Source: a virus (taxonomy: Duplodnaviria; Heunggongvirae; Uroviricota; Caudoviricetes). From it: a stretch of 64,000 nucleotides of DNA. Where the stretch lies: the IMG/VR virus record IMGVR_UViG_3300033075_001761; one strand, written 5' to 3'. The notes beneath the pieces were generated by a model. It made no database searches. It was not told the DNA's origin and saw only the letters and a list, made by a program, of their open reading frames with translations. This document shows, piece after piece, positions 1,943 to 61,995 of this stretch; position 1 is the first letter of the stretch, and each line of letters starts with the position of its first letter. The translations under genes and the position numbers were made by a program.

Positions 1943-1958
1943 GTCCAATCAATTAGAC
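1943..1958. repeat. 16-bp palindromic motif copy, GTCCAATCAATTAGAC (1 mismatch)
   Basis: 12 nt after the stop of gene 1521. Confidence 0.6.
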
Positions 1959-2043
1959 TTTTATTTGTTTTTGACTCATGTCCATAAAAAGACATTTTTA
2001 TAAGCGTACATTGTTGGCTGAGTAGCCAACAAAAGGAGACGCT

Positions 2044-2907
2044 ATGAGACTGTTCCTAGTTTTTTTTGTTTTGTTTCCATCCATGGCATTCGCCACGATC
2101 CTTCCTCCAAACAATCTCCATCTAGAAGATAATTTGTATGGATTTACAGGGATTGACCAAGAACAATTTAATGACGCGATTTCTAAAGCAGAGGAAGTTT
2201 ATAAGCCAATCGTAGAATCACACGGAGCTACTTTAAAGATCAATCGGCTTTGGACCAATGCAACCGTCAATGCATCTGCATATCAAAACGGACGCTCATG
2301 GATGGTTGATATGTTTGGAGGCTTAGCTAGGCGTCAAGAGATTTCTCCAGATGGATTTATGATGGTTATTGGGCACGAGATCGGGCATCACATTGCTGGA
2401 GTTGCTTTTTATGGCAATGCAGAATGGGCCAGTGCTGAAGGAGCTGCGGATTATTTTGCAACTCATTCCTTTGCAAAGATGATTTGGCAAAATGATTTGA
2501 TTGGCAACCAACAGGCAGCCCAATTTGTAGAGCAGATTCCTAAAGAAAAATGTGATGCCCAATGGGTAGAAGAGAAAGCAAGATTTCTTTGTTACAGGAC
2601 AGCAATGGCTGGAAAATCTTTGGCAACTTTGCTTGGAGCCTTGGGAGGACAGGTTCCAGATTTCGCAAGGCCATCTACAAGCGTTGTAACAAGAACATAT
2701 ACACCTCATCCTCATAGCCAATGTAGACTTGATACATACATGTCTGGAGCTTTGTGTAAAAAATCTTTTGACCCATTGGTGATCCCTGGACGTGGCAACA
2801 GGCAGCTAAGCCCTGAGGCAGAACAAGAGGCTTTTAGGTTTTCATGTAAACAATCTGAAGTCGGATTTAGGCCAAAGTGTTGGTACAAACAGCTTGAATC
2901 TAATTAA
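2044..2907 (+). CDS. secreted zinc metallopeptidase-like protein (HEIGHH motif)
   Basis: Signal peptide MRLFLVFFVLFPSMAFA, then HEIGHH (HExxH) with downstream Glu and GAADYFA. SD AAGGAG upstream. Confidence 0.5.
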   Translation: MRLFLVFFVLFPSMAFATILPPNNLHLEDNLYGFTGIDQEQFNDAISKAEEVYKPIVESHGATLKINRLWTNATVNASAYQNGRSWMVDMFGGLARRQEISPDGFMMVIGHEIGHHIAGVAFYGNAEWASAEGAADYFATHSFAKMIWQNDLIGNQQAAQFVEQIPKEKCDAQWVEEKARFLCYRTAMAGKSLATLLGALGGQVPDFARPSTSVVTRTYTPHPHSQCRLDTYMSGALCKKSFDPLVIPGRGNRQLSPEAEQEAFRFSCKQSEVGFRPKCWYKQLESN

Positions 2908-3000
2908 GTTCAAAGAAATCTTCGTCTAAAATCTGTTCTATTGAGAACGGATTTTTTTTTGGAAAACTCTTATATTCAATACAATTCATCGGAGATTTTT

Positions 3001-3972
3001 ATGTTTTCTTTGCCAATTCTTTCAACATGCGGAAATGCTTCTGTTTTTGCGATGGGTGCTTTAATATGCACTCAGCCAACACAAAACGCCTCTGTTAAAA
3101 TAAAAGTCCCTCCTACGGATGGACAATTTAGAGCTGTAGATTGCCAGAAAGATCTTACAGAAGACGGAACTCCAGATGACTTTAATTTTGAGAAATTCAG
3201 GAAGGGTTTTTGGCTTTGGAGAAAAACATTAGTTAAAATTTCCGAAACACCAAGTTTTTCTTTTTCAAATCCAAGAAATAACTGCCCAGTGATTGTTTCT
3301 GTGGCATCTAGAGATACAGGTACACAACAAGCCGCAATATTTTTTCAATCAAACCTTTCCTTGGACTTTCAGTACGAGTGTAATGGAGTCACTAAGGAGT
3401 CTTATCTTGCAGATCCAAATAGGGTTGGAAGCTTTGCTGGCTATTGCAGAAGCTTTGTTGGAACTGAGCATAAGCTTCGTGTGAAGCCGTTTAATCAAAA
3501 ATGGGTGCTTAATGCCGTTGGACCTAGCTGTAATTTTTTGTTTAAGACTTCGTGGGATATTCCTGGAGCAAGGCCAGAATTTACAGTGCCCGTTAAAGAC
3601 GGATTCTGCCCGATCTCTTTTGAACTTAAAGAATTGGTTAACGAAAAGGTTCAGATCAAAAAAGGATTCTTTGTAAGCGAAGGGCAATCGAGTTCTTATA
3701 AGCCGATTGATTCTGCAAACTTTGTAAAAGATGATGGGCAGATCAAAATAATTCCTCCTATGTTTGCAAATCTTATGTGGGCAAACGCTATCACTTCTGG
3801 TCAAGTCGTTTGGCAGGGTGATAAAAACAATGGTGTGATTGAAGTGAGTAGCGATAGATTCCTTATGAACACAAAGCTTTGCGCAGCGTCTTATTCAAAT
3901 GAACTTGGTAGCGAAAGCTTTGAATGCATCGATCCACAATCCATGAAAAGGATGCCTTATGAATTTCGATAA
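3001..3972 (+). CDS. cysteine-rich secreted protein
   Basis: ORF track 2941..3972 (TTG start). ATG at 3001 gives MFSLPILSTCGNASVFAMG, a signal-like N-terminus. About 14 Cys. Confidence 0.4.
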   Translation: MFSLPILSTCGNASVFAMGALICTQPTQNASVKIKVPPTDGQFRAVDCQKDLTEDGTPDDFNFEKFRKGFWLWRKTLVKISETPSFSFSNPRNNCPVIVSVASRDTGTQQAAIFFQSNLSLDFQYECNGVTKESYLADPNRVGSFAGYCRSFVGTEHKLRVKPFNQKWVLNAVGPSCNFLFKTSWDIPGARPEFTVPVKDGFCPISFELKELVNEKVQIKKGFFVSEGQSSSYKPIDSANFVKDDGQIKIIPPMFANLMWANAITSGQVVWQGDKNNGVIEVSSDRFLMNTKLCAASYSNELGSESFECIDPQSMKRMPYEFR

Positions 3973-4246: not shown

Positions 4247-4259
4247 GAGGGTATACGCT

Positions 4260-5383: not shown

Positions 5384-5566
5384 ATGTTTACAATTGTTCT
5401 TCCAGAAGAGACTTTTAATATCGTAAAAAAAATTGCATCTCAAACTGGCAAGTCTTATGCGGATATTATTTCAATGGGCATTCAAAAACTTATTGAGCCC
5501 ATAAAAGAAGAAGAGAAGAAACATATTGGACGTGTGGCCAGATTTGGCAGTAAACAAAAAGAATAA
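5384..5566 (+). CDS. ribbon-helix-helix (CopG/Arc-like) DNA-binding protein
   Basis: 60 aa. An N-terminal beta-strand (FTIVLPEETF) followed by two helices, typical of RHH proteins. Confidence 0.4.
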   Translation: MFTIVLPEETFNIVKKIASQTGKSYADIISMGIQKLIEPIKEEEKKHIGRVARFGSKQKE

Positions 5567-5567
5567 A

Positions 5568-5583
5568 CTCTAATCAATTAGAC
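5568..5583. repeat. 16-bp palindromic motif copy, CTCTAATCAATTAGAC (1 mismatch)
   Basis: Starts 2 nt after the RHH gene stop. Confidence 0.6.
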
Positions 5584-7942: not shown

Positions 7943-9079
7943 ATGGCTTTAGTTGAGTTTGATAACCAATCGGCATCAGGCATTGCCACTCCTGGTTCTG
8001 GTTATACTTCTGTGTTTGTTGATGCATCCGATAAAAAATTAAAAACAAAAGATGATACAGGAGCCGTTACTGATTATTCGGCGCCAGGAAATTCAATTAC
8101 GCAATTGACTGGAGAAGTGACTGCTGGACCTGGGCCTGGTTCTGTTGCTGCTACAGTTTCAAATGCGGCTGTAATCGGTAAAGTCCTGACTGGATATACT
8201 GTTCTCTCAGGAAACGTCTCTGCTACGGATACAATCTTGCAAGCGATTGGAAAGCTTTCTACGCGATCTGGAAACGCCATGTACGGAGCAGGAACGGATG
8301 GCGACCAAACAATCACAGTAGACACAACACTTGTAAAAGACATGTATTACAACAATCTTACAATTAATGCTGGAGCTACTGTATTTACAGCAGGGTACAG
8401 AATTACTGTATACGGAACGTTAACACTTCCTTCTGGCGCATTTATTAAGCGCGAAGGAAATAATGGGGTTCTAAGCGTTGCGGGAGCTGCACAAGCTGCT
8501 GGCACTCTTCCTGGATTTGTGGCTGGCGGAGCTGGGCAAACGGGCGCAGGAACCGCTGGTACGGCGGTTTCAAACGCATTTGGAGGTTCTGGAGGCGCAG
8601 GAGGAGCTGGCGTATCTGGAGGTGGAGGCGCTGGAGTTGCGACTGTTCCTGCCGCTACAGTCGGCGGAATTGATATTGCTTACAACGTGAATTTCGCTTC
8701 TGTGATGCAAGTTCTACCAGGAACTCTTGGAACTGGAGCTGGCGGAGGAGGCGGAGGAGGCGGAGCTGGCGTAGGATTCCCTGGAGGCGGAGGAGGAAGC
8801 GCAGGTGGCGTTGTTGTTATTCGTGCCCGTAGCATTGCCGGAGCTGGGACTGTTTCTGTTATCGGCGGAAACGGAGGCGCTGGCACGAGCGGAGGCGGAA
8901 ATACAGGAGGAGGCGGAGGAGGCGGAGGAGGAGTGATTGTTGTTATTAGCGACAACGACCCTTTGTTGACTACTACAATTACCTTCACTGTAACGGGAGG
9001 AATTGGCGGACCTGGAGGAGCTTCTGGTGCTTCTGGAGCAAATGGAGCCAATGGACGTACATTCTTCTTGAGGCCGTAA
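7943..9079 (+). CDS. glycine-rich tail fibre or spike-like protein
   Basis: Conserved fibre-like N-terminus (TPGSGYTSVFVDASDKKLKTKDDTGAV). The C-terminal half is G-rich runs alternating with short beta-strand segments (VVVIRARSI, VIVVISDND), suggesting a beta-helix. Confidence 0.55.
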   Translation: MALVEFDNQSASGIATPGSGYTSVFVDASDKKLKTKDDTGAVTDYSAPGNSITQLTGEVTAGPGPGSVAATVSNAAVIGKVLTGYTVLSGNVSATDTILQAIGKLSTRSGNAMYGAGTDGDQTITVDTTLVKDMYYNNLTINAGATVFTAGYRITVYGTLTLPSGAFIKREGNNGVLSVAGAAQAAGTLPGFVAGGAGQTGAGTAGTAVSNAFGGSGGAGGAGVSGGGGAGVATVPAATVGGIDIAYNVNFASVMQVLPGTLGTGAGGGGGGGGAGVGFPGGGGGSAGGVVVIRARSIAGAGTVSVIGGNGGAGTSGGGNTGGGGGGGGGVIVVISDNDPLLTTTITFTVTGGIGGPGGASGASGANGANGRTFFLRP

Positions 9080-11837: not shown

Positions 11838-14258
11838 TTGTTTTTTAAGTTAGAAGACATTCACACAGTAAATCTCTCTAAGCCTCTAAAGAGCATTAAG
11901 CATAAGTTTTTTGATGATATTGGATGCACAAACTATCTTCCGGTCTATCCTTTAAAAAAGCTATATAAAGCAGCAGATATAACTTCCTTTGATCAAATTC
12001 TATTTAGCCTTATTTTGTGGCGTTCTAGAAACAAGCATAAGTGTAGTTTCTACGAGCAATCTGCCAGCACGTTTTCTGGAATTCTTAAAATCGACGTAGC
12101 CACAGTTACAAGGTCTCTACAGAGGCTAAAGCACGTTGGGCTACTGAGAATGGCTGAGAAGCCAGAAAACGCTTCTGCGTTCTTTAAACGGCACTTTTAT
12201 ATACCAAAGTGCATAGAGACTGACGGCAATCCTTTTTTGATCCCCTTAGAGGTATTGAAAGATAAAAACCTCACATGGGATCAAAAACTGATCTACGGAG
12301 AGGTTTGTTACAAATTCGCTATTCAGGAAAGGCATGGCTTTGGGAAGTTCAAAACCATGGAGGGTTTTGTTCCTCTTGGAAAAAAGCGTTTAAAAGCCAG
12401 GATTTCAAGAAGTGAGAATTATTTCTGGAAACGCTGTAAAGAGTTGGAAGAGATGGGCTTGGTTCGGATAGAGAAGAGAATTATCGATAAAACGTTAGTC
12501 TGGTTTTATTCGCTCAATAAATTAGCAGACTCTTATGGGAAGAAAGAATCCTTTCAGGAAATAGAACAAGTCATTTCTGAGTCAATAAAGAGCAAAAGAG
12601 CTAAAAAGTACAAGAGATCTGTCAAAAAGGTCCATGAGGGTTCCTTTGGCCAAGAGACCGAAAAGATAAAGGAAATGGATCGAGAATTATGTTTGTTGTG
12701 TGACATGGAAGAACAGGAAAAAGAAGAAGTTCCTTCTTCTTATTCTTCTTATAGTATTAATAATATTATATCTGAGGAGAATTTTTCATTATTAGAGAAA
12801 GAATTAGATAATGAAATCAACTTAGCTTCGGTAGATTGCGGGAGCTATTTAGAAGAAGAGGATATTCTGAGTGAAAAAGTTCCTTGCGTGAGCTTGCGTG
12901 AGCTTGCGGGAGCAGAGGATATTCTGAGTGAAAAAATAGATCCTTTGCATTGTATTTTAAAGGAAAGTTTTTCAGTTTTAAATAAAGAAGTTGTAATGGA
13001 TCTCGCACCTTCGGTGCTCGATCGAAATGTTTTTGGAGAAAATTCTGTCGGAAAATGTTTAAGGGGATCGGGAACCAATCCCCCTACCCCCTTTCCTATT
13101 GGAGCTTGTTTTTATAGCAATCGAAAGAGAGCACGTTTAGAGGCCCGAGAAGCTCTTAAACTCACGAGGTATAGCCAATCTATAGGGCGCATACGGAACG
13201 TGAGCGTAGGCAAGGCCAAATCAATTCTTTGGGCATGGTTTAAGACTGAGATTGAGCGCAAGGCGATCGTTGGAGAGCGGTTCCATGAAGACGCATTGGG
13301 GATTGAGCAAGCAGAGGCCAAGAAAAAACTGATGCGTAAGTACAAGAAGAGATATGCGCAGATGATAGAAATTGGAGCGAAAGAGATACTTCAGAGTGGT
13401 AAGACGCCATATTTTTCTACACTTGGGATGATTGTTCATACGAACAAAGGGGATTTCATTATGAGTTCAGATTGGAGAGCGAACAAAGAGTTGAATGAGG
13501 CTAAGCGGATAAAGAATAAGGAAGAGCGGAAAGAAAAGACAAAATCAGCGGTGGAGAAAGCCTTGTCCAAAATGCAGGTAGCGGCTGATGTTAAGATGCT
13601 TGGCAATGGTTTTTTCATAAGCACAGTGGAAGAATTTCCAGAAGTGAAGTCTAATCGATTGGACATTTTTGCTAAAGAGATGAAGAAGTCCAAATTCAAA
13701 GATAAAACAAAGAACCACAAAATTGATAACGAATCGAGACAAGAAGGCGAAAGTCATAACGAGTGGTTGTTGAGGATTTCTAAGCGAAAAGCCATTGTTG
13801 CGTATGAGAAATTCTTCTTGGAAGGCGGACCTAGCAATGTGGACAAATCGGATTTGGCTGTTCTTGACAACGCACTTTCTCAGTTGATACAGGAGAAAAC
13901 TCTTAAAGATCCCGAATCTGTGGCGCTCTACATTGAAAGAGCCTCTTGTGAATCAGATTTTCGAGAAAAGGTTGGTCTTTGGCAATTGAATCGATGCAAA
14001 AAACAAGATTTTAGGATTCGCCAGATTTTTGGAAATTACAACATAGGGTGTTTTGTGAAATACATAAGAGATTACCTAGATTGGGATATTTCAGACTCCT
14101 CTAAAAAATCTGCTGTTCAGATGGATCGAGAGAATTTAAAGGTCTTTCATGACGACTCACAGGAAGTCATGGATGAGTTGAATCGAAGCTATTTTGAGCG
14201 ACTTAAGAGGTTAAAAGAGGACATGTTGGCAAGGGATCAACAAAATCAGAATGCTTAA
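11838..14258 (+). CDS. large replication-associated protein with winged-helix-like motifs, internal repeats and a K/E-rich coiled coil. Putative initiator or helicase loader
   Basis: 806 aa with a TTG start. Two wHTH-like segments (TVTRSLQRLKHVGLL and KRCKELEEMGLVRIEKR). Sits directly upstream of DnaB and DnaG and downstream of iteron-like repeats. Function is inferred from context. Confidence 0.45.
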   Translation: MFFKLEDIHTVNLSKPLKSIKHKFFDDIGCTNYLPVYPLKKLYKAADITSFDQILFSLILWRSRNKHKCSFYEQSASTFSGILKIDVATVTRSLQRLKHVGLLRMAEKPENASAFFKRHFYIPKCIETDGNPFLIPLEVLKDKNLTWDQKLIYGEVCYKFAIQERHGFGKFKTMEGFVPLGKKRLKARISRSENYFWKRCKELEEMGLVRIEKRIIDKTLVWFYSLNKLADSYGKKESFQEIEQVISESIKSKRAKKYKRSVKKVHEGSFGQETEKIKEMDRELCLLCDMEEQEKEEVPSSYSSYSINNIISEENFSLLEKELDNEINLASVDCGSYLEEEDILSEKVPCVSLRELAGAEDILSEKIDPLHCILKESFSVLNKEVVMDLAPSVLDRNVFGENSVGKCLRGSGTNPPTPFPIGACFYSNRKRARLEAREALKLTRYSQSIGRIRNVSVGKAKSILWAWFKTEIERKAIVGERFHEDALGIEQAEAKKKLMRKYKKRYAQMIEIGAKEILQSGKTPYFSTLGMIVHTNKGDFIMSSDWRANKELNEAKRIKNKEERKEKTKSAVEKALSKMQVAADVKMLGNGFFISTVEEFPEVKSNRLDIFAKEMKKSKFKDKTKNHKIDNESRQEGESHNEWLLRISKRKAIVAYEKFFLEGGPSNVDKSDLAVLDNALSQLIQEKTLKDPESVALYIERASCESDFREKVGLWQLNRCKKQDFRIRQIFGNYNIGCFVKYIRDYLDWDISDSSKKSAVQMDRENLKVFHDDSQEVMDELNRSYFERLKRLKEDMLARDQQNQNA

Positions 14259-19274: not shown

Positions 19275-19961
19275 ATGTTCTTTAAAGGCGAAGACGCAAT
19301 TGATTCTGAAGCAAAGCGATTGGCGGCAGTGAAGGCTCAAAGGCTGAATCAACCTCCGCTATTTTGGCTTAAAACAGGAGAAACAAAAGAAGTTATTATG
19401 TTGGACGATGATTTCATCAGCTATTATGAGCACTACATGGTTGAAGGAAACGATTGGAAAAATGCTGTTCGTGAAATGTGTATTGGGGATACATCTTGCC
19501 CTTTGTGTACCCATGGTGTTCGCAGAAGCCTAGTAAGTCTTTTGTCTTTGGTGGATACAAGCGAATGGACTGACAAGCAGGGAAATATTCACAAGAACGA
19601 AAAGAAGATCATGAAGATTAACAACGCACAAGCGATTAATCTTAAAATCCTTAAGGCAAACTTAGGAGGTCTTAAGGGAAAGAGGCTTCAGATCACCAGG
19701 CCAACCGATAAAGATCCAAATACTGGGTCTGCGTTCATTCCTATGGCCAAGGACGGCAAGGTTGTTTCGTATGATCTCGTTGCTCAAGCGGCGCAAGGAA
19801 AAGACGTTTCTCCATTAGATTATAAAAAGCACTTCGTTCAGAAGACTTCTGAAGAGCTGAAAAAGCTCGTTATGCACAAAGGCGTTAAAGTTTCTACGCT
19901 AAACCTAGATGACGATTCTAGTCCATCTCCAAAAGCGGACGACGAAGATATTCCGTTTTAG
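19275..19961 (+). CDS. putative single-stranded DNA-binding protein (T4 gp32-like Zn-binding type)
   Basis: Cys/His cluster H..CIGDTSCPLCTHG and patchy similarity to the gp32 core. Sits at the head of the helicase-RecA-nuclease-RuvC block. Identity is tentative. Confidence 0.4.
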   Translation: MFFKGEDAIDSEAKRLAAVKAQRLNQPPLFWLKTGETKEVIMLDDDFISYYEHYMVEGNDWKNAVREMCIGDTSCPLCTHGVRRSLVSLLSLVDTSEWTDKQGNIHKNEKKIMKINNAQAINLKILKANLGGLKGKRLQITRPTDKDPNTGSAFIPMAKDGKVVSYDLVAQAAQGKDVSPLDYKKHFVQKTSEELKKLVMHKGVKVSTLNLDDDSSPSPKADDEDIPF

Positions 19962-21373: not shown

Positions 21374-21823
21374 AAAGGAGAGATCATGACCGAAGAAGTT
21401 GTTTTAGACTCAAATAGTTCGGAAGAGGCAGCAGGAACGCTCTCGTTTGAGACTAAAAAAAGAGGCCGTCCTAAAAAGGTTGTATCAGACACAGTGACTA
21501 CAACGCTTTCTGTTGGATCAAAGAAGCACACAGGGCCAGGAACAGAGTCGCAACCAGAAGTCACAAAAACAAAAACAAATCATAGAGAAGTTTGTACAGA
21601 GTCTATGGCCAGGGTTGCTGGTACATGGGGAATTACAAAGAGTCTTGGGAATTATGAGTTTGCTAGAGTTGACGTTCAGATAGAGCATTATTGCGAAAAG
21701 GGAAAAGAGACTCAAAAAATTATTGAGCTAGAACAAATTGCCTGTGATTATTTGAGTGTAATGGTCATGGATGTTGCTGAGAAGATTTTTAAAGAGAAGA
21801 AACTTAAGGATACATCTCTATGA
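21374..21823 (+). CDS. AT-hook-containing DNA-binding protein
   Basis: SD AAGGAGagatcATG. KKRGRPKKV AT-hook in the N-terminal region. Track ORF 21353. Confidence 0.45.
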   Translation, partial: KGEIMTEEVVLDSNSSEEAAGTLSFETKKRGRPKKVVSDTVTTTLSVGSKKHTGPGTESQPEVTKTKTNHREVCTESMARVAGTWGITKSLGNYEFARVDVQIEHYCEKGKETQKIIELEQIACDYLSVMVMDVAEKIFKEKKLKDTSL

Positions 21824-22959
21824 GCAAAGACAAGCCAGCAGAAAAGTCTAATCAATTAGACGAAAAGCCTGTTTCAAAAAGAGAGCTTGCCAGACAAGGC
21901 GTGCTGGCAGTCATTAATAAGAAATTTAATCTTAGGGTTACGAACCATAATTCCGAATATGTACCCATGTACAGATTGTCTACAGGGGTTTTCTCTCTCG
22001 ACGTTGCTACGCATGGCGGAATTCCAATGGGAAGAGTTACAAAAATCCATGGTTCTTCGTCGAGCGGAAAGACTACCATTGCCTACAGGCTTATTGCTGA
22101 TGCTCAAAGGCGATCTCAAGAGACTGGAAAGTATCTTTTTGAAGAGAAAGATCCAAAAAACAAAGTTCCAATGAAGGCTATATTTTTTGATTTAGAAGGT
22201 ACGTTCGATAAAGAATGGGCGGCATACCACGGCGTTAATTTGTCGGAGCTTGATTACATTAAACCGTCAACAGCGGAAGAGACGGGAACATCTATTGCCG
22301 CGCTTATTAGAGCCGGAGCCTATGATTTGATTGTGCTTGATTCGTTGGCGCAAATGATCTCAGCACAAGAGTTTGATAGCGCACTGGAAGAGCATAATGT
22401 TGGAATATCTGCTAAGCAGAACAATAAGATGTTTAGGCAGGTTCAAGCCGCGCTAAATGAGTTGGCTAAAGATCCTGATCGAAAAATACTTCCAGCATTG
22501 ATTGTGTTGAATCAACAAAGAGCTGGGATGAGTATGTATGGTCCGAAATTAATCGAACCAGGCGGAGAGGGTCAGAAGTTCGCCGTTTCTGTGAACATAA
22601 AGCTGTCAGGAAATAAGATCGATTACTTTGATAAAGACAAAAAATACCCAAGAGCAACAACGATTACGTTCTTGATTGAAAAGAACAAGACAGGCGCGCC
22701 TAAGGTTGAAGGCGATTTTGAAATGGCTGTGGCCAATGATCCAGATGGAGAGTTCAAAAAGGGACAGATTTTTGAAGAAAAGAATGTTGTAGATTTTGCA
22801 GAGAAGTGTGGGTTTTTATCCAAGGATGGAGCTAAGTGGAAAATGTTTGACGAGATTCATCCAAGAAAAGAAGATGTTCTTGAGAAGTGGTTTCGCAATG
22901 CTGATAGATATGCATTTGTGAAGGCCAACATTCTTAAGACTCTTTTTCAAAAGAGTTAG
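21820..22959 (+). CDS. recA: RecA-family recombinase
   Basis: LDVATHGGIPMGRVTKIHGSSSSGKTTIAYRLIADAQ (Walker A), IVLDSLAQM (Walker B region), LIVLNQQR and the GGEGQKFAVSVNIKL L2-region. Collinear with E. coli RecA. Confidence 0.7.
   Translation: MSKDKPAEKSNQLDEKPVSKRELARQGVLAVINKKFNLRVTNHNSEYVPMYRLSTGVFSLDVATHGGIPMGRVTKIHGSSSSGKTTIAYRLIADAQRRSQETGKYLFEEKDPKNKVPMKAIFFDLEGTFDKEWAAYHGVNLSELDYIKPSTAEETGTSIAALIRAGAYDLIVLDSLAQMISAQEFDSALEEHNVGISAKQNNKMFRQVQAALNELAKDPDRKILPALIVLNQQRAGMSMYGPKLIEPGGEGQKFAVSVNIKLSGNKIDYFDKDKKYPRATTITFLIEKNKTGAPKVEGDFEMAVANDPDGEFKKGQIFEEKNVVDFAEKCGFLSKDGAKWKMFDEIHPRKEDVLEKWFRNADRYAFVKANILKTLFQKS
21846..21861. repeat. 16-bp palindromic motif copy, GTCTAATCAATTAGAC (perfect)
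   Basis: Read directly. Lies in the first codons of recA (encodes KSNQLD). Confidence 0.7.
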
Positions 22960-22961: not shown

Positions 22962-23375
22962 ATGTGGGGAAATAAGAAAAAGCCAAAAGACCCAATGAGA
23001 GACTTTTTTGAGTCTCAAAGGGAAAGGAAAACAGGTCACGAATCTGTGTTTAGACATGAAGAGCAAGCAGCAGAGCTTGTAGGTGGAAAGAGGCATAAAG
23101 GAAGCGGATCTGTGAGTGGTCATAAGTCTGACGCCAGCTCGGAAGATTTCCAGGTTGAATGCAAACAGACAGAGAAAGAGTCCATTTCTATAAAGCTAGA
23201 ATGGCTTGACAAGATTAGTAGAGAAGCTTTTGGAAGAGGTAGAAAGCCGCTCCTTCACATAAGATTTCTTCAGGCAGATGGCATCATGAATCAAAAAGAT
23301 TGGGTTCTCATTTCAGCTAAGGATTTTAAAAATTATGTTGTTTGTGGATTTTCTTCAGAAGACATTATTCAGTAA
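22962..23375 (+). CDS. hypothetical protein
   Basis: 137-aa basic protein immediately after recA. Confidence 0.45.
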   Translation: MWGNKKKPKDPMRDFFESQRERKTGHESVFRHEEQAAELVGGKRHKGSGSVSGHKSDASSEDFQVECKQTEKESISIKLEWLDKISREAFGRGRKPLLHIRFLQADGIMNQKDWVLISAKDFKNYVVCGFSSEDIIQ

Positions 23376-24186
23376 GAGCGAGCTTCTTCAGAGCGTTTTA
23401 AAAGGCGAAGAAAGGGATAAGTATCCGTATGTTGTTGGTAGCGTAATTAGGGCTAGCGGAGCTTATAATCTATGCCCAAGAGAAGAGTTTATATGCTCAA
23501 AAGAAGAGCTTGTTCGTAAGGACAAAATTTCTCCTAAAACCAATGTTATTTTTAAACATGGTAGGGTTTTTGAGTCGTGGTTTAGAGATGAAGTTTTGGG
23601 CGACGCTGGGAAAGTTATTGGTAAATGGAAGTGTTTGAAGTGCGAGCATATTCCAAATGAAGTCGCTGGAATTAAAAGGTATTTAAAGCCTTCTGTTTGC
23701 CAGAAGTGTTTTGGAACAAGGTTTGAATATATGGAAGAGTTTGCGCTTGACCAAGAAACAGGTATTGGCGGAAGTTGTGATGGATTTTTGTATCACAACA
23801 ATGAGTATTTCATTCTAGAAATGAAGACCAGCAACAACTATTCGTATCAATCATTCAAGAACGCTGTCGGCGATTCTCATAGAGTTCAAGTCAATATTTA
23901 CATGTGGCTGTTTGGGTATAGGGCGGCAAGGGTATTTTATTTTAACAAAGATACTGGCGATACTTGTGAGCATGTGGTTTCTATTGATTGGGATATTGTG
24001 AATCGGATTAAGAGTCGGGCAAAGCAGCTTCAAGAATCTATGAGAACAAACAATCCACCGCAAAAGATTTGCTCAATAATAGATTGTAAAAGAGCAAAGA
24101 GTTGTTCTGTAAAAGATATTTGTTTTAGTGATAAATATGAACATAAAGTAGCTGAGGATATTTTCCTTCCGGCAGATTTTGAATGA
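23335..24186 (+). CDS. Cas4/RecB-like PD-(D/E)xK nuclease with a Cys cluster
   Basis: N-terminal YNLCPRE motif. Core CDGFLYHNNEYFILEMKTS (D...E.K). C-terminal CSIIDCKRAKSC cysteines consistent with an Fe-S cluster. Confidence 0.5.
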   Translation: MLFVDFLQKTLFSKSELLQSVLKGEERDKYPYVVGSVIRASGAYNLCPREEFICSKEELVRKDKISPKTNVIFKHGRVFESWFRDEVLGDAGKVIGKWKCLKCEHIPNEVAGIKRYLKPSVCQKCFGTRFEYMEEFALDQETGIGGSCDGFLYHNNEYFILEMKTSNNYSYQSFKNAVGDSHRVQVNIYMWLFGYRAARVFYFNKDTGDTCEHVVSIDWDIVNRIKSRAKQLQESMRTNNPPQKICSIIDCKRAKSCSVKDICFSDKYEHKVAEDIFLPADFE

Positions 24187-24755
24187 ATAATAATATAGCA
24201 AGAAAAAACGTTGTAGCTGGGCTTGATCTTAGCCTTAGGGGAGCTGGAGTTGCTGTTATAGGGCTGGATGGAGCCGTCAGTGCCGCAACCTTTGGATATC
24301 CACTAAGCAAAGAGAGTACAGATAGAGATAGGCTGGAAAGAATTTTAAAGGTCACGTCTCAGCTCATGGATTTTTTAAAGCTCCACAATGTTAATTATAT
24401 TGGAGTTGAAAATTATGCGTTCAGCAAAATGAACTCAATCAGTTGCCAGGCAGAGCTTGGCGGCGTTGTTAAGAGTCAAATTTATGTTTCTATGAAAATA
24501 GTCCCCATAACCATACCAGTTACTTCTGTAAGAAAATTTGTTCTTGGTAAGTCTACAAACAGCAAAGTAACAGTTCAAAAGCATTTTAAAGCACTTGGAT
24601 ACATTCTTAAGACGGCAGATGAATATGATGCTCTTGCTGTAGCGTATTTAACGGACTTCTGGGCGAATGATAGAAATTGTGGCGGAAACAAATATCATTC
24701 AGAGTTATTGGATAGACTAGATCTTCAATCTAGCAAATCAATACAATCAAGATAA
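24183..24755 (+). CDS. ruvC: RuvC-like Holliday junction resolvase
   Basis: GLDLSLRGAGVAV (motif I), central E, and C-terminal DEYDALAVAY (DA.DALA motif). Confidence 0.6.
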   Translation: MNNNIARKNVVAGLDLSLRGAGVAVIGLDGAVSAATFGYPLSKESTDRDRLERILKVTSQLMDFLKLHNVNYIGVENYAFSKMNSISCQAELGGVVKSQIYVSMKIVPITIPVTSVRKFVLGKSTNSKVTVQKHFKALGYILKTADEYDALAVAYLTDFWANDRNCGGNKYHSELLDRLDLQSSKSIQSR

Positions 24756-24824
24756 ATTTGACCGCTTTGTAAAAAATAGTTACAAGATTCCAATAAATCA
24801 AAATTCACATTCAGGAGTCCTAAG

Positions 24825-38649: not shown

Positions 38650-39510
38650 ATGAAACTAGTAATCTTGGCTTCGGTTGCGGTGGCAGTAACGGCTTGTGGA
38701 CGCGCAAAGGACTCTTTCGAGCAAGTTCATCCACAGTCTGAAAAGCAAGCTGAGGAGGAGTCTGACGATTTTGACGGTCGTGGGTATAGCGTAGCTACCA
38801 AGGGCAAGCTCGCTCCTTGTAATGACAAGCGAGATGGCTCTTTAGTTCGCGTTCGGGATGAGTCCAAGTTCTATGTTTGTGATGATAGCAATTGGAAAGA
38901 TATCGACCTTAATGGAGCTAAGGGCGATAAGGGCAAAGGAATGGGGGTTGAGATCTCAATAGCCCAGCATTGCGGAGCCGCAAGCGGCCAGCTTATCCGT
39001 GTGTTCAAAGACGCTAATCAGGACGGATTATATAATACAAATGATGGCGATGTTGAGCAGACTACCCAAGAGGTTTGTAATGGAGTAAACGGGTCAAACG
39101 GCACTAACAACAAGATGGCTTTGCATTACCAGTGCTCTATTACTATGGATAATAATCAATTTAACGCAAATGAAGTGATGGTTGTTCAGTACCAGGTTTA
39201 TAAAACAACGGCAGGAGATGTAAGTTCTAGTTATGTAATTGCGCGTCCTAATGTTTCAAACGGGGGTCAGTTCCAGGGCCCTACTGTGTTTTATCCCGCA
39301 GGCCATGCCAAAGCGTCTACGGTTGAAAGCACGTACAGATTGAACCTTACTATTGGTGGCGTAACTGATCCTGGCATCTTTACTTCGACGTTTAATTTTA
39401 CAACAAAACAAGCTACAATGAAGTACAGAGACACCGACCAAAGTTCACTGGCTGGGTCTGATTATACGCAAACATGGACTTCTAGTTGTACTGAAACTGT
39501 GTCTAATTGA
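38650..39510 (+). CDS. secreted lipoprotein
   Basis: SD GGAGGttttATG. MKLVILASVAVAVTACG carries a lipobox. Track ORF 38596. Confidence 0.5.
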   Translation: MKLVILASVAVAVTACGRAKDSFEQVHPQSEKQAEEESDDFDGRGYSVATKGKLAPCNDKRDGSLVRVRDESKFYVCDDSNWKDIDLNGAKGDKGKGMGVEISIAQHCGAASGQLIRVFKDANQDGLYNTNDGDVEQTTQEVCNGVNGSNGTNNKMALHYQCSITMDNNQFNANEVMVVQYQVYKTTAGDVSSSYVIARPNVSNGGQFQGPTVFYPAGHAKASTVESTYRLNLTIGGVTDPGIFTSTFNFTTKQATMKYRDTDQSSLAGSDYTQTWTSSCTETVSN

Positions 39511-39516
39511 TTAGAC
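39501..39516. repeat. 16-bp palindromic motif copy, GTCTAATTGATTAGAC (perfect, opposite orientation)
   Basis: Overlaps the lipoprotein stop codon at 39508-39510. Confidence 0.7.
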
Positions 39517-40930: not shown

Positions 40931-41398
40931 ATGAGCATTAAAAATTATTTAAGCGAGCTGTATGAGTCTGATCAGGATGAATGGAGAATAAGGTTAATAA
41001 GTTTGATTAATGAAGGTCGTATTTCTGAGATAGATTTTATTAATCTGAAAGTTTTTTTAATTGAGATGGGAAGCTCAGATTATGCAGAAATAGAAAGCCG
41101 TATGAGTTTGCTCATGATGCACTTGTTAAAGGCAATTTATCAGCCAAAAAGAATGGGAAAAAGTTGGATTCTTACTATAATTGAACAAAGGAGAAAGTTA
41201 AAAACAAAGATTTTAAAAAGCAAGAATTTTGAAAATCACCTAAGAAGCACGTTTAAAAATCTTTATTTAGAAGCAAGGCAAGACGTTTCATTAGAGACGA
41301 GAATGCCTATAGAAGAGTTTTCCAAAGAGCCTCCATTTACGTTTGATGAAGTAATAGACTCTGGTTACATACCAAATGCAGAGCTATACAATGATTAA
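40931..41398 (+). CDS. DUF29-family protein
   Basis: LYESDQDEWRIRLISLINEGRISEIDFINL...MMHLLKAIYQPKRMGKSWILTIIEQRRKL matches the DUF29 family consensus (LYE.DFY.W...L..G....D..NL...HLLK..YQP...SW..TI.EQR). Confidence 0.5.
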   Translation: MSIKNYLSELYESDQDEWRIRLISLINEGRISEIDFINLKVFLIEMGSSDYAEIESRMSLLMMHLLKAIYQPKRMGKSWILTIIEQRRKLKTKILKSKNFENHLRSTFKNLYLEARQDVSLETRMPIEEFSKEPPFTFDEVIDSGYIPNAELYND

Positions 41399-41804
41399 AA
41401 ATAATGCACATAAAGATGCATATATAGAAAATCAAATAAAAAGATCAAAAGAAATAAAAAGATTTATATGGGAAGAAATAGACCCATTGGATGATTTGTT
41501 TGAGATGACAACAATAAATTCTAAAAGAAGCGGGGTTAGTCATTACATTTGGGCCGGAATAAGAAATAAACAACATGCAGATAGGATTAAAATAACAAAT
41601 CATCCTTCTAAGCTAGATTGGAATGATTCGTTTGTGGTGAGTGTAGAGGATAATCCTAAAATTGTGGCTGGAATTTGCGAGCTAAGCACAAAGGAATTAA
41701 AAAATGTATTTGAGTTCGTAAAACTGAATAAAGACTTGATTATCAAATATTCTAATCACGAAATGGATACAGAGCATTTTTTGAACGCACTTAAAAAGGT
41801 CTGA
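41376..41804 (+). CDS. hypothetical protein
   Basis: 142-aa ORF overlapping the DUF29 gene by 23 nt. Confidence 0.4.
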   Translation: MQSYTMIKNNAHKDAYIENQIKRSKEIKRFIWEEIDPLDDLFEMTTINSKRSGVSHYIWAGIRNKQHADRIKITNHPSKLDWNDSFVVSVEDNPKIVAGICELSTKELKNVFEFVKLNKDLIIKYSNHEMDTEHFLNALKKV

Positions 41805-41826
41805 TCAAAAGAAGAGCAATCAAAAA

Positions 41827-41842
41827 GTCTAATCAATCAGAC
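41827..41842. repeat. 16-bp palindromic motif copy, GTCTAATCAATCAGAC (1 mismatch)
   Basis: 23 nt after the stop of gene 41376, at the start of the 372-bp noncoding gap. Confidence 0.6.
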
Positions 41843-42176
41843 AAAAGGCACAGAAGAGTTTGATTAAACACGAAAACATGTGTATATTTATAAGCGATAA
41901 GTTAAATCCCTAAAGACTTATTGGCCCCTTGTTCGAGATTCACGAACTCCTCCAATAGTTAGCTTTTTGGACAAAGGGCGTTTTGAGCAGGGCATAGACC
42001 CTGAGGACCAAGGAAAATGGCTCAGGGCGGAAGAACTGCAAATGTGAATAACTTTCCAAAGAGTTGTTCATATAGCTAAAATTACAGTCAAAAACAAAAC
42101 GTACAAAAAGTTGTATTCTGTCGAGTCGTTTGATAGAAAGTCACGCCGTTGGCTTCGGCAGTAAAGGAAAATAAAT

Positions 42177-45268: not shown

Positions 45269-45610
45269 ATGGATCTTGATCAACTTACACTCGGGCAGCT
45301 TAAGCAAATTTCGTCTTTAAACATTGGAAGATCAAAAGCAGATCATCCATTTAAAATAGGAAGATCATACATGATACGAACTGTCACGATGAGCAACGTT
45401 GGCGAAGTTGTGGCCGTCGTGGGTGATTTCCTCGTTCTTAAGAATTGTGCTTGGATTGCCGATTCTGGGCGCTTTTGTGACTTCTTGAAAGATGGAGCTG
45501 TTAGCATTGCGTGCGAAATTGAGCCAATGCTTGGGGAGGTTTTCGTAAACATGAAATCGATTATAGACGTGAGCGAATGGATACACGGCCCTCTTTTGGA
45601 TCAAAAATGA
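45269..45610 (+). CDS. hypothetical protein (N-terminus MDLDQLTLGQLKQ..., duplicated downstream of the microsatellite)
   Basis: ATG at 45269 with an AGAGGGA SD. Track ORF 45221. Confidence 0.4.
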   Translation: MDLDQLTLGQLKQISSLNIGRSKADHPFKIGRSYMIRTVTMSNVGEVVAVVGDFLVLKNCAWIADSGRFCDFLKDGAVSIACEIEPMLGEVFVNMKSIIDVSEWIHGPLLDQK

Positions 45611-45629
45611 TATTAATAAACAACATTAA

Positions 45630-45800
45630 TAGCAAGAGCGGGAGCAAGAGCAGGAGCTGGAGCAGGAGCAGGAGCAGGAGCAGGAGCTGGAGCTGGAGCT
45701 GGAGCTGGAGCGGGAGCAAGAGCGGGAGCAAGAGCAGGAGCTGGAGCAGGAGCAGGAGCAGGAGCTGGAGCAGGAGCTGGATCGGAAGCAGGAGCAGGAG
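45630..45800. repeat. hexanucleotide microsatellite (GCAGGA/GCTGGA/GCGGGA)n, about 28 units
   Basis: Read directly. All six frames are open across it (SR/SW, GA, QE/LE on the + strand and PA on the - strand). Only the SR/SW + frame (45577) and the PA - frame have in-frame start codons. Confidence 0.7.
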
Positions 45801-45900
45801 GACATTGATCAACTGACACTAGGGCAAGTTAAGCTTTGGCAATGACAGTGGAGATTTTTATTAACATGCTTCCTAAAGATCTCTCCGAAGAAGAATTCCG

Positions 45901-50493: not shown

Positions 50494-50883
50494 ATGCACT
50501 ATGAAATCGTTGACAATTCTTCAATTAGAGGCGGAGCGGACATGAATATTTCCGATGTAGGAGATGTTTATTTAATCAGCGGAAGATTGTCTGCTGAAGT
50601 TGGAAAGCGTGTTTTTGGAAGATGGGTAGGCATTGGGTCTCAGTCGAAAGACTTTTCTATAAGAGTTCCAAAGCAAAAGATGTCTGAAGCTTTTGTTTCA
50701 GAAGCCCATTCGTTTACGTTTGACGGAATCGAATTCACAAGATCTGGAGGTTCTGAATTTAGGTTCTCTGCAAATGGAGCAAGTGGCTCGTTTCAGTATT
50801 CATTAGATGGAAATGATCCTGTCGATATTTCTTCTGTTGAGGTTTCAGCTCTTGGAATGAACGTAAGGCTTTCCAGAGTCTAA
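50494..50883 (+). CDS. hypothetical protein
   Basis: 129-aa ORF with an AAAGGAG SD. Confidence 0.45.
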   Translation: MHYEIVDNSSIRGGADMNISDVGDVYLISGRLSAEVGKRVFGRWVGIGSQSKDFSIRVPKQKMSEAFVSEAHSFTFDGIEFTRSGGSEFRFSANGASGSFQYSLDGNDPVDISSVEVSALGMNVRLSRV

Positions 50884-50893
50884 TTGATTAGAC
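50878..50893. repeat. 16-bp palindromic motif copy, GTCTAATTGATTAGAC (perfect)
   Basis: Overlaps the stop of gene 50494 (TAA 50881-50883), 16 nt before the aminotransferase start. Confidence 0.7.
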
Positions 50894-53463: not shown

Positions 53464-54552
53464 TCAATGGAAATCAGAAGGATCTTTTAAAAGATAGATA
53501 TCAGAGATAGCTTTTAAAACTTTTCTGCCAGTTATACATGTTTCTTCTTTGACTGGTTTTACAACAATTCCTTCTCTGACTTTTTGCTTACCAATAAAGC
53601 TATCTCCATCTCTCATGCTCATAATCATTTTGTGATTGTATGGTCCTACGTACATTTCAGGTACTCTTTCAAATCCTCGCTTATCACACCATTCCTTAAA
53701 TTCTTTATGGCTAAGGTACTTTCCATTGATTTGTACATCATAAAGATAGAGGGCGTGTTCTCCTATAGGAAGGCCGTACGAGTATCCTTTTTGAATTCCG
53801 GGCCCTACAACCTCTCCATAAATGGCTTCTCCATAGGTTAAGCGTTCTTTAATTAGATATTTATCACAAATCTTTTTGTACAGATTTTCACCTTCTGAAT
53901 GTTGAAGTTGTACATTTCTTGAGCCGTAAACAAATTCATATTCTTTCCAAAGACCAATAATTTTAAGAAAAAAACGGATTACTTTGGGCCAAAAAGTTGA
54001 AACATCTTTTTTAGACCAACCTGCTCGATAGGAAGTTCCGTGTAATTTTTCGCTTACGTAGACCTGTTGGTTTTCTTGGAATAAGTTTACGTAGTTTTTT
54101 ATATTTTCAATGTCTGTATATTTCTTGAAGTTTGAATTGTCTAATCGCTTAGACTTTTTAACGCTTGTTATTGCGCTTTGATAGTCAGGAAGAGGTGGTT
54201 CGTACTTTGTTATTTTAAGTTCTTTTGTAAGATCTGTTCCTTCTGGTCTTTCTTTAATTCCAAGCACATCAAATCCTGCAAGCATTCCTTGAGAGATGGC
54301 ACCTCGGATTTTGATAGATTTGACCCTTCCTTTTTGAAGAGTGATTTTGCTTCCTTCTGGGAACAGTTTATTCTCAATAGATTCGGGAAGTACAGAATCA
54401 ATAGGAATGTAAACAGCCAGGTCGCCTTCTTTGTATATGTATTTTCTAGAGACTACGTTCCATCCATTGATTGTGATCAGATCCAAAGAATCTGCGTTTG
54501 GATGTTTTTCTACGGACTGAATCCTTACAACTTCTACTTTTAGCGTGCTCAC
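53464..54552 (-). CDS. ATP-dependent RNA ligase (Rnl2-like nucleotidyltransferase with an N-terminal tRNA-binding-type OB domain)
   Basis: Minus strand. N-terminal VEVVRIQSVEKHPNADSLDLITIN (Myf/EMAP-like OB). Motif I EKLHGTS (KxHG as in T4 Rnl2), motif IV REGIVVKP. Confidence 0.55.
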   Translation of the reverse strand: MSTLKVEVVRIQSVEKHPNADSLDLITINGWNVVSRKYIYKEGDLAVYIPIDSVLPESIENKLFPEGSKITLQKGRVKSIKIRGAISQGMLAGFDVLGIKERPEGTDLTKELKITKYEPPLPDYQSAITSVKKSKRLDNSNFKKYTDIENIKNYVNLFQENQQVYVSEKLHGTSYRAGWSKKDVSTFWPKVIRFFLKIIGLWKEYEFVYGSRNVQLQHSEGENLYKKICDKYLIKERLTYGEAIYGEVVGPGIQKGYSYGLPIGEHALYLYDVQINGKYLSHKEFKEWCDKRGFERVPEMYVGPYNHKMIMSMRDGDSFIGKQKVREGIVVKPVKEETCITGRKVLKAISDIYLLKDPSDFH

Positions 54553-56222: not shown

Positions 56223-56238
56223 GTCTAATCGATTGGAC
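56223..56238. repeat. 16-bp palindromic motif copy, GTCTAATCGATTGGAC (1 mismatch)
   Basis: In the divergent intergenic region, 7 nt upstream of the acetyltransferase ATG. Confidence 0.6.
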
Positions 56239-60731: not shown

Positions 60732-60747
60732 CTAATTTGTAGGTTTT

Positions 60748-61413
60748 ATGTCATTGTTCAAAGATCCAGAAGATCTAGCTACTAGGCTTAAGTCACAAGC
60801 TATTAAAAACAAAGCGCCAGTGTTTGTTCGTAAGTTAGTTTCTGCAAAGTGTTGGCCAGAAGTTTGCGAGAAGCTTTCCAACTCAGAAAACATTAAATCC
60901 ATTGCCGATTTTGTTCAGGTCACTGAGCTTACAGAGTATACGAGAGCTTCGTTTATTCGTCAGATGTATATGTTCTGTGAGTATTTTGAGAATGAATTTG
61001 GGAAGAATCAGACTCCAAATACATTTGAAGGTTTAGTGAATACAGTTGCCAGCAGGGTTGATCCAGTTGACGCTCTTTACTATTTGCTCAACATTCAGGC
61101 AGATCGGGTTCATGCATCGTATTTGGCAGAAAAGAAATCAAAGAAAATAGATGAGAAAATTACAAATAACATCAAGGTTTTTGTAGAGATCGTGAAGTCT
61201 ATTTCTACGGTTCAAAACGAGAAATCAAATTCTGACAAACAAAGCGGAGCCATTGATCCTGTAGAGCAGATGGAAAAGCAGAAGAAGATTTATGAAGAAA
61301 AGTTCGGAGAAGTTGGTGCCAAGATTTTGGCAAACCCAGACTCAAGAAAAAGAGTTCTTCATGTAGTAGAGATGATGACATCAAACGCAAATATCAAAAG
61401 TTCATCTAAGTGA
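60748..61413 (+). CDS. hypothetical protein
   Basis: 221-aa ORF. Confidence 0.45.
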   Translation: MSLFKDPEDLATRLKSQAIKNKAPVFVRKLVSAKCWPEVCEKLSNSENIKSIADFVQVTELTEYTRASFIRQMYMFCEYFENEFGKNQTPNTFEGLVNTVASRVDPVDALYYLLNIQADRVHASYLAEKKSKKIDEKITNNIKVFVEIVKSISTVQNEKSNSDKQSGAIDPVEQMEKQKKIYEEKFGEVGAKILANPDSRKRVLHVVEMMTSNANIKSSSK

Positions 61414-61422
61414 GATTTCATA

Positions 61423-61995
61423 ATGAGAAAGCAGCACGATCAGTATTTCACGCCAGCAGGTATGGTTAAGCATCTATCGAATGTAAAAGAGATAGATCTT
61501 TGTTCCAAATATATTTTGGAGCCATTTGTTGGCAGGGGAGATCTAATCCCTGGAATACAAGAAATGTTCCCGAGTTCGGAAATTAGGACAAATGATTTGC
61601 ATCCAACAGAAGAGTTTAATCCGTCTAATCGATTAGACGCCAGCACAAAAGAGTATTGGGACAATATAGAGTTTACTTCTGGAGTGATAACGAATCCTCC
61701 TTTTTCATTGGCCAATAAGATTATTCCATTGATGGTTGAGTCAAAGAATGTCCATGGATTTGTAGCGGCATTGCTTAGGCTGTCATTCTTAGAGCCAACA
61801 TTGGAAAGATGTGACTGGTTGCATGCAAATCCTCCAGACTATTTAATTTCGCTTCCAAGGATATCTTTTGACGGTAAAGGCACTGATACGGTTAATACAG
61901 CCTGGTTTGTTTGGCTAAAGAAGCCAAAAGAGTTTGGAAATATTATAATCATTCCAAAACAACCAAGGAGAAAGAAAAATGCTGACATCGCTTGA
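61423..61995 (+). CDS. small orphan N6-adenine DNA methyltransferase
   Basis: DQYFTP (motif X), EPFVGRGDLI (motif I, AdoMet binding) and GVITNPPF (motif IV, NPPF). No restriction partner is visible. Confidence 0.55.
   Translation: MRKQHDQYFTPAGMVKHLSNVKEIDLCSKYILEPFVGRGDLIPGIQEMFPSSEIRTNDLHPTEEFNPSNRLDASTKEYWDNIEFTSGVITNPPFSLANKIIPLMVESKNVHGFVAALLRLSFLEPTLERCDWLHANPPDYLISLPRISFDGKGTDTVNTAWFVWLKKPKEFGNIIIIPKQPRRKKNADIA
61623..61638. repeat. 16-bp palindromic motif copy, GTCTAATCGATTAGAC (perfect, CG centre, fully self-complementary)
   Basis: Inside the methyltransferase ORF (encodes PSNRLDA). Confidence 0.7.

Follow-up and report, generated by a model that had tools for sequence, protein, structure and literature searches.

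A 16-bp palindrome dispersed through an uncultured tailed phage recurs in unrelated podoviruses and is a probable site for a dimeric DNA-binding protein

A few phages are known to carry dispersed dyad repeats, for most of which no function has been worked out. The stoperators of L5 and other Cluster A phages, which are temperate, are asymmetric 13-mers oriented with transcription and bound by the phage repressor gp71. The KorB operators (OB) of RK2 and the inverted repeats of phiC31 are palindromes of 13–17 bp, present in about 12–18 copies per 40–60 kb and read by one global regulator; some of them lie at promoters and others are distant or intragenic, and the gene for the binder (korB or the repressor gene c) is on the same replicon. 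Here we describe a 16-bp palindrome, of base form GTCTAAT-YR-ATTAGAC (Y, pyrimidine; R, purine), that is dispersed through 64,000 nucleotides (the window, meaning the whole stretch analysed) of an uncultured tailed phage, IMG/VR record IMGVR_UViG_3300033075_001761. Its closest described analogue appears to be the 17-bp dyad TGTTCGG-NNN-CCGAACA of the Cluster O mycobacteriophages, which occurs in more than 30 copies, 14 of 34 being intergenic, and for which a dimeric regulator was proposed (Cresawn et al. 2015, PMC4351075). Sites for host regulators have also been described in phages, among them Spo0A boxes and parS in lytic phi29 (PMC2731898) and CtrA boxes, concentrated in one region, in unrelated alphaproteobacterial phages (PMC9437464). 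We lean, though not strongly, to the view that the copies reported here form an operator-type set of double-stranded DNA sites for one homodimeric, sequence-specific protein that would act as a genome-wide transcriptional control or as a clamp, the binder being likelier to act in trans.

Allowing at most two mismatches, GTCTAATNNATTAGAC had 12 matches in the window where 0.33 were expected, the expectation being the mean of 100 dinucleotide-preserving shuffles, none of which reached 12 (maximum 4). An earlier note on this DNA, made from its letters alone, had reported at least 10 copies and held the number to be beyond chance. All 10 of its coordinates were right, its four perfect copies are indeed perfect and the shuffle control agrees with its judgement, but it had overlooked two copies with one mismatch each, at 13649 and 54139, and the degenerate half-site that it placed at 49625 lies more than three mismatches from the motif and so is not a member. 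The family is real, under selection and well bounded. Raising the limit to three mismatches added no site, whereas 3.3 matches at that limit (≤3 mismatches) were expected in shuffles, so that the family ends sharply; isolated half-sites (GTCTAAT outside palindromes) numbered two in the window, with no enrichment, and no other dispersed repeat family was present there. The centre is a pyrimidine–purine step in 12 of 12 copies (CA in five, CG in four and TG in three), and the wider consensus is aGTCYAAT-YR-ATTRGACt, with a weak bias to A in the 5' flank and to T in the 3' flank that lengthens the dyad to about 18–22 bp; beyond this nothing is conserved. The Logan assemblies SRR32380200/1 contain the same sequence and add about 8 kb on each side of the window (contigs L031 and L032). 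Two further copies were found there, a perfect one at L031:2431 and one at L032:17570 that overlaps the stop codon of the portal gene, giving 14 copies over about 80 kb, or one site per 5–5.5 kb. The 12 copies in the window are these:

1943-1958: GTCCAATCAATTAGAC, one mismatch; 12 nt past the stop of 1521-1931, in the 112-nt gap ahead of gene 2044.
5568-5583: CTCTAATCAATTAGAC, one mismatch; 2 nt past the stop of the 60-amino-acid (aa) gene 5384-5566, ahead of gene 5613.
13649-13664: GTCTAATCGATTGGAC, one mismatch; within the 806-aa open reading frame (ORF) 11838-14258, in frame as K-S-N-R-L-D.
21846-21861: perfect; 26 nt into the RecA/UvsX-like gene 21820-22959, coding S-N-Q-L-D.
26169-26184: TTCTAATTGATTGGAC, two mismatches; occupying the 23-nt gap between 25774-26166 and 26190-26591.
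34987-35002: GTCTAATCAATTAGAA, one mismatch; in a two-gene overlap, comprising the stop of 34453-34992 and codons 3-8 of 34979-35263.
39501-39516: perfect; including the TGA stop of 38650-39510.
41827-41842: GTCTAATCAATCAGAC, one mismatch; 23 nt past the stop of 41391-41804.
50878-50893: perfect; including the TAA stop of 50494-50883 and ending 15 nt ahead of the ATG of an aminotransferase gene, 50909.
54139-54154: GTCTAATCGCTTAGAC, one mismatch; within the minus-strand RNA ligase gene 53464-54552, coding S-K-R-L-D.
56223-56238: GTCTAATCGATTGGAC, one mismatch; between divergent genes, its end 6 nt ahead of the gene 56245 ATG.
61623-61638: perfect; within ORF 61423-61995, coding S-N-R-L-D.

These copies are concentrated at gene junctions. 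Seven of the 12 overlap a stop codon or non-coding DNA, compared with 9.5% of all 16-mers (binomial p=3.7e-5, in a test that relies on the gene calls supplied with the Logan contigs), and in nine the distance to a gene start or end is at most 35 nt. The bias towards gene boundaries that the note had described, with stops overlapped at 39501 and 50878, thus stands up to a position test; the copy at 34987 encloses a stop as well. Spacing of the 14 sites, 2.1–9.1 kb, is far more even than random (coefficient of variation 0.42, P=0.0014), and the intragenic copies occupy stretches without intergenic room. The note's statement that three copies lie inside ORFs in a frame free of the embedded stop was correct as to the frame and short in its count, as four copies fall within a single ORF (13649, 21846, 54139 and 61623, of which 21846, 26 nt from the start codon, is also among the nine) and 34987 falls in a two-ORF overlap. 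The TG-centred form carries TAA, TGA and TAG across its three frames, and the CA- and CG-centred forms keep one frame open; all coding copies, including the overlap copy at 34987, are read in the sole stop-free frame, as S-N/K-Q/R-L-D/E. CGA encodes the arginine in three of the four single-ORF copies, at a CGA usage of 9% in this phage, and this together with the sole open frame indicates that it is the DNA sequence that is kept, not the peptide.

Several copies stand beside sequences with a bearing on expression. The copy at 41827 opens a 372-nt stretch without a called gene (41805-42176), in which neither an Rfam nor a tRNA match was found, and lies 18 nt upstream of a promoter-like element, TTGATT-17-TATATT. 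At 56223 a TATATG hexamer is found 8 nt upstream. Both 26169 and 56223 end 5–6 nt ahead of an ATG, and the A-to-G variant in their right arm supplies the only GGA there that resembles a ribosome-binding site (RBS).

The motif is not confined to this phage. A scan for its C/G variant (GTCCAAT-YR-ATTGGAC) led to IMGVR_UViG_3300033144_002959, a contig of 93.7 kb and about 50% GC, which carries 11 copies, both inter- and intragenic, over the 57 kb obtained, a density of about one per 5 kb. Its DnaB-like protein is 26% identical to that of the window (1e-19), synteny is partial, and matches were also obtained to 19275-19961, to three adjacent genes at 23335-25790 (one at E=1e-3) and to the 1488-aa intein-containing protein described below; by these protein similarities it and the window phage are distantly related. 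Between the two, site density has been kept and site positions have not.

Public collections amounting to 596 billion bases were also scanned for the exact 16-mer, genome loci being taken from the matches listed (120). Most were single unrelated matches, and many of these were the tips of unrelated terminator hairpins with differing outer stems; single-copy bacterial matches were taken as background. The contigs with many copies were small phi29-like podoviruses of about 15 kb, encoding a connector, a phi29-type capsid protein, a gp16 ATPase and a protein-primed polymerase. L226 holds 14 copies in 14.8 kb and L061 nine in 5.8 kb (about one per kb), and several copies each were present in L200, L256, L040, L055/L036 and L038. 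No protein common to the window and these podoviruses was found, tblastn at 1e-5 being empty and sensitive blastp giving noise. In the podoviruses the palindrome stands 0–12 nt upstream of the RBS of most gene groups, in either orientation, and in one case it caps a longer bidirectional terminator. L226 and L061 share 72% DNA identity and keep eight of nine site positions, with changes only between T and C at position 4 and between A and G at position 13; such retention over 28% DNA divergence argues for purifying selection on fixed sites. In L061 all eight exact copies have the TG centre on one strand, irrespective of gene orientation. The motif was not found in the nearest cultured relatives checked, two Astrithrvirus genomes and Amedibacillus phage AD70P2, the Astrithrvirus phages (of Salmonella and Acinetobacter) having about 50% capsid identity to the podoviruses. 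Pfam detected no DNA-binding domain in the podovirus early proteins, and in the podovirus stretch between two sites Rfam detected no packaging RNA and folds were unremarkable.

Other palindromes were seen in phages of this kind. An exact parS-type GTTTCACGTGAAAC occurs in three gut phi29-like phages (L040:7080-7093, L282:8621-8634 and L283:12025-12038) and nowhere in the window. L040 carries the motif as well, its parS lying within a terminator-like hairpin beside a degenerate motif copy, and L282 and L283 do not. L283 (MT836125, a human-faecal phi29-like phage) has a different palindrome, GTTCGA-YR-TCGAAC, in eight copies in 12.7 kb (for example at 829, 3430, 5288, 6599, 8933, 11001 and 12250), just ahead of an RBS or intragenic. 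Dispersed palindromes with a YR centre may thus be common in gut podoviruses.

The analysis shows sites that are selected, biased to junctions, evenly spaced and common to several phages; that a protein binds them, that it is a dimer, which protein it is and how it regulates are inferred. The perfect dyad, the YR centre, the lack of isolated half-sites and the tolerance of pair-breaking mismatches favour a double-stranded DNA site for a dimeric protein. The note had preferred a site for a dimeric DNA-binding protein, and this seems to us the best reading too, given the dyad, the centre, the missing half-sites and the paired operators in bacteria described below; its other suggestions, a site for modification, homing or recombination, gained no support. 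Because the motif is common to a distant relative and to unrelated podoviruses, while the cultured relatives of the latter that were checked are without it, a factor acting in trans is likelier than a private regulator. One homodimeric protein would then decorate the whole genome at about one site per 5 kb, at the junctions of transcription and translation units, that is, at stops, ahead of RBSs and beside promoter hexamers. Its most likely action would be promoter occlusion or an elongation roadblock, amounting to a global on/off switch, and the even spacing would fit equally well a genome-organising clamp of the KorB/ParB type. Candidates for the binder are a host regulator, should the phages have a host in common, and a horizontally shared factor; the best lead for the former is a BlaI/MecI-type repressor released by the BlaR1 protease.

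Comparison with the described systems gives likenesses to several of them. As in Cluster O, the arms are inverted, 7 bp long and nearly invariant around a short variable centre, tens of copies run throughout a phage without sign of lysogeny in an inter- and intragenic mix, about 40% of them fall between genes, others fall barely within the 5' ends of genes and about one third are truly intragenic, and most sites are away from promoters. Unlike in Cluster O, the sequence is another one, the centre has 2 nt instead of 3, the density is one per 5.5 kb instead of one per 2 kb and the spacing is significantly even; moreover the Cluster O site was reported absent from other phages, whereas the present motif is common to a relative and to podoviruses. 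With the stoperators it shares the many copies in short gaps genome-wide, where the action proposed is that of a bound repressor that would block elongation and silence the genome (cf. PMC4351075), and it differs from them in being a perfect palindrome, in a centre orientation unrelated to gene direction, in its intragenic copies and in that about 80 kb yielded no repressor or integrase domain. Palindromic sites both at and far from promoters recall KorB OB and phiC31, unlike which no ParB/KorB-type domain (ParBc) was present in the precomputed Pfam annotation of the window genes, many of which are unannotated. The presence of one motif in unrelated phages recalls the Spo0A and CtrA sites, where the binder is a host protein that couples lysis to the state of the host; in contrast to the CtrA sites the present ones are spread evenly, and for Spo0A and CtrA the proteins and their chromosomal regulons are known.

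The lead to BlaI comes from bacteria. The exact 16-mer is the predicted promoter operator in five BlaI (PF03965)-BlaR1 (M56) operons from metagenome-assembled genomes (MAGs) of Clostridiales/Lachnospiraceae and from metagenomes, in the layout TTGACA, 6 nt, GTCTAATCGAT[TAGACT], so that the right arm would be the -10 hexamer at 17-nt spacing, and a second dyad lies just ahead of the RBS. Proteins of the five loci are 42–99% identical and the operator is kept. Classical BlaI/MecI/CopY operators of S. aureus and Enterococcus are of the TACA/TGTA type. That the binder is a host winged-helix repressor of this family, with its operator retained at most transcription units and the phages silent until a BlaR1-type membrane protease cleaves it (a "lytic deferment" gated by a host signal), we think unlikely, although these points speak for it: the identical 16-mer as operator O1, overlapping the -10 of autoregulated Clostridia promoters with two dyads, its conservation over so wide a range of proteins, the placement of the second dyad as in the podoviruses, the binning of podovirus contigs with Lachnospiraceae, Ruminococcus and Oscillibacter MAGs, the host-type parS sites in gut phi29-like phages (the motif-bearing L040 among them) and the Spo0A and CtrA precedents. 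On the other side, BlaI homologues of 77% identity use GTCTAATGGTGTAGAC, the subfamily keeping only the outer GTCTA...TAGAC while the inner six bases vary, unlike the AAT-YR-ATT of the phages; other regulator families match the 16-mer too; the 50% GC of the relative suggests a different host; and the phages lack a BlaI gene. A promoter with the motif at a fixed spacing from a -35 hexamer was tried as a general description and rejected, as this geometry, with TTGACA and the -35/-10 overlap, fits the bacterial blaI loci alone and no phage copy. IMG/VR contigs that do encode a BlaI homologue have two promoter sites only and no dispersed copies. Nothing relevant was found in the literature on the motif sequence, or on BlaI together with phage.

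Further bacterial occurrences involve other regulators. Paired 16-mer sites were found upstream of HicAB, of a MarR-like gene and of a 165-aa winged-helix gene, and the 16-mer flanks TrpR-like genes in three Saccharibacteria loci. In one contig (L169:2890-4090), ten copies of GTCCAATYRATTGGAC with conserved flanks fill 1.2 kb of non-coding DNA around a TrpR-like helix-turn-helix (HTH) gene between type IV pilus genes, and the homologues of this gene in two Saccharibacteria MAGs are motif-flanked too. The deltaproteobacterial MAG MFD02242.bin.3.158 (64–68% GC) has the exact 16-mer on at least four contigs (L072, L084, L106 and L113), one copy being in frame in dnaE2 with the A/T-rich codons TCT AAT CGA TTA, which looks like an unrelated chromosomal regulon on the same site. 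About 26 IMG/VR elements of 30–36 kb with one GTCCAATCGATTGGAC copy each were set aside as uninformative, because the copy lies inside a conserved 326-aa gene and is present by descent. In four elements of this size (L292, L296, L301 and L303), arrays of different 16-bp palindromes, GTCCAATCGATTGGAC, GTGCAATCGATTGCAC, GTGCAAACGTTTGCAC and GTAAACTCGAGTTTAC, were seen beside a PcfJ-like gene, their repeated scaffold copying an internal segment of the 326-aa gene.

Several results weigh against an operator set for one dimeric protein. Searches with tblastn, hmmsearch and hhalign found no BlaI (PF03965) in the window, its flanks or the podoviruses, no TrpR-type protein was found in the same sequences, and no LacI HTH signature was found in ORFs near any copy; the architecture of the palindrome resembles that of galO, with 12 of 16 positions identical. 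One gene of the window is worth listing:

37083-37313, + strand: 76-aa helix-turn-helix protein (HTH_50, 2.3e-5, below the family cut-off), a candidate binder only.

It is the best match in the window to the motif-flanking TrpR-like regulators of Saccharibacteria, a weak one (hhalign probability 16%), and its AlphaFold model was unusable (pLDDT 49). The note had proposed a binder among the small HTH or ribbon-helix-helix proteins of the window, a proposal that went unsupported: their Pfam matches are weak, as at 37083, or absent, as for gene 5384, and they have no homologues in other motif-bearing phages. Few sites keep a fixed geometry to promoter-like hexamers, and the phage sites keep the inner bases as well, unlike the BlaI operators. 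Among the matches listed, the sole bacterial genome with scattered copies is the unrelated deltaproteobacterial MAG, at 68% GC, so that no plausible regulon-bearing host was seen there. In a search of 596 billion bases any 16-bp palindrome would be expected to hit some operator by chance, the 16-mer has matches in several unrelated regulator families, and the link to BlaI, which rests mainly on taxonomic plausibility, was modestly weighted.

That the motif acts as RNA seems to us quite unlikely. As a short intercistronic hairpin it would terminate transcription weakly or in both directions, be processed by an RNase, stabilise 5' ends or serve as a translational operator before the RBS. Such a role would suit the placement of sites between stops and ribosome-binding sites, the Shine-Dalgarno-like GGA in the right arm at 26169 and 56223, the RRM-domain protein encoded just past the window and the conserved podovirus copy that tops a longer GGGA...TCCC hairpin with a T-run between convergent genes. 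It would also suit the T-rich 3' and A-rich 5' flanks of 7–8 of the 12 copies: at each of the three positions 3' of the motif T is found in 7–8 of 12, in runs of 3–5 nt, with none at 21846, 41827, 56223 and 61623. The folds, however, consist of a weak 6-bp A/U-rich stem with minimum free energies of -0.4 to -7.1 kcal/mol in 32-nt windows, their z-scores are unremarkable for half of the copies, and at 1943, 5568 and 26169 there is no hairpin, as the mismatches of these copies abolish folding. The palindrome lacks the stable G+C-rich stem of an intrinsic terminator. Such GC-rich terminators do occur elsewhere, at 988, 2928, 11809 and about 39536; the last, a classical one about 35 nt downstream of the copy at 39501, is followed by a TTGCAA-17-TATATA promoter, from which it follows that the palindrome there is neither. 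The note had likewise argued that the motif is not a terminator or a stable hairpin, and these energies, the three unfolded copies and the terminator after 39501 bear this out. Variants that break pairing (C.A and A.C mismatches) are tolerated beside G.U pairs, the T..G variant in L226 is independent of the direction of transcription, copies occur mid-gene on both strands, and across unrelated phages the arm sequence is kept, which is more than mere pairing ability.

Recombination or mobility sites, serving module exchange between co-infecting phages or spreading by themselves as palindromes like the repetitive extragenic (REP) ones, are very unlikely in our judgement. Gene-boundary placement and occurrence in unrelated phages agree with this, as does the turnover of positions between distant relatives at constant density; the uniform TG centre of L061 hints at copying or homogenisation, and the comparable Cluster O repeats have recombined into insertions and deletions (PMC4351075). 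Yet the sites have no associated recombinase, HUH/RAYT transposase or homing enzyme, and the comparison with REP/RAYT systems found no transposase near them. Nothing is conserved past about 18–22 bp, and 16 bp is too short for efficient homologous exchange. The in-frame intragenic copies and the eight of nine positions kept in podoviruses point to purifying selection, not spreading, and no plausible host genome with many copies was among the matches listed. Least likely of all is a core promoter or activator site, with the right-arm TAGACT as -10 for host RNA polymerase and a phage factor: TAGACT is a functional-looking -10 at the BlaI promoters, several podovirus genes are ordered hairpin, motif, RBS, ATG with no other promoter candidate and a T follows seven of the 12 window copies to give TAGACT or TGGACT, but in none of the phage copies is a -35 hexamer or an extended -10 correctly spaced, a palindromic promoter would fire both ways, ordinary sigma-A-type promoters are nearby, and several copies lie deep in genes or at 3' ends with a terminator and a separate promoter after them.

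Nearly all genes of the window are on the + strand. They include tail genes, one of them for a contractile-injection-system tube-like protein, a replication and recombination block (a DnaB-like helicase, a second helicase and the RecA/UvsX-like protein), two clusters for sugar nucleotides and aminosugars, an Amidase_3 endolysin and the RNA ligase, with an SbcD-like exonuclease on the - strand; shortly beyond the 3' end comes a T4-type portal gene. Megablast of 6 kb of the window gave no match to cultured phages, and RecA-based searches for relatives, including IMG/VR, returned the same phage and otherwise at most 42% identity on short contigs, with no close relative. Scans of the window for tRNAs and with Rfam gave zero matches. 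Other features were seen in passing:

8591-8947: GGAGGC/GGAGCT repeats, glycine-rich, within the 378-aa gene 7943-9079 in the tail region.
36701-37018, + strand: 105-aa protein with a match to the Acb2/Tad1 hairpin domain (PF24729, E=6.8e-6, just under the family cut-off), which may be an anti-CBASS or anti-Thoeris nucleotide sponge.
45607-45834: tandem 12-nt repeat, AGCAGGAGCTGG-like, of about 13 or more units, at which one Logan contig breaks.
62284-64000 and on into L032:10862-15328: 1488-aa gene leaving the window, with MJ0330_N, two intein-splicing regions and an HNH domain, by its domains an intein-interrupted phage protein.
L032:15332-15637, about 3.3 kb past the window end: 101-aa RRM_1 protein adjoining the T4-type portal gene, unusual in a phage.

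Dispersed dyad repeats were known before, and the new element is the sharing of one identical site across phage families. A bolder extension of the preferred reading, tentative and to our mind rather improbable, is that one trans-acting protein reads a 16-bp address common to a myovirus lineage of about 95 kb and a 15-kb phi29-like podovirus clade. A host repressor, such as one of the BlaI type cut by BlaR1, may have been recruited independently by several phage families as a common master switch to defer lysis; alternatively, the podoviruses may imitate the regulatory code of the large phage and rely on its factor, which would make them virophage-like parasites of another tailed phage. The second gut podovirus palindrome, GTTCGA-YR-TCGAAC, points to such codes being host- or partner-specific, and they could then serve to link uncultured phages with hosts or with one another. 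If a regulator does act in trans, a 22-bp oligonucleotide (AAAGTCTAATCGATTAGACTTT) would be a handle with which to fish the binder from extracts of the host or of infected cells, and the motif could serve as a signature for grouping uncultured phages in metagenomes by host or partner. The case might also be a further one in which phages without common descent have tied their entire genomes to a single host signal.

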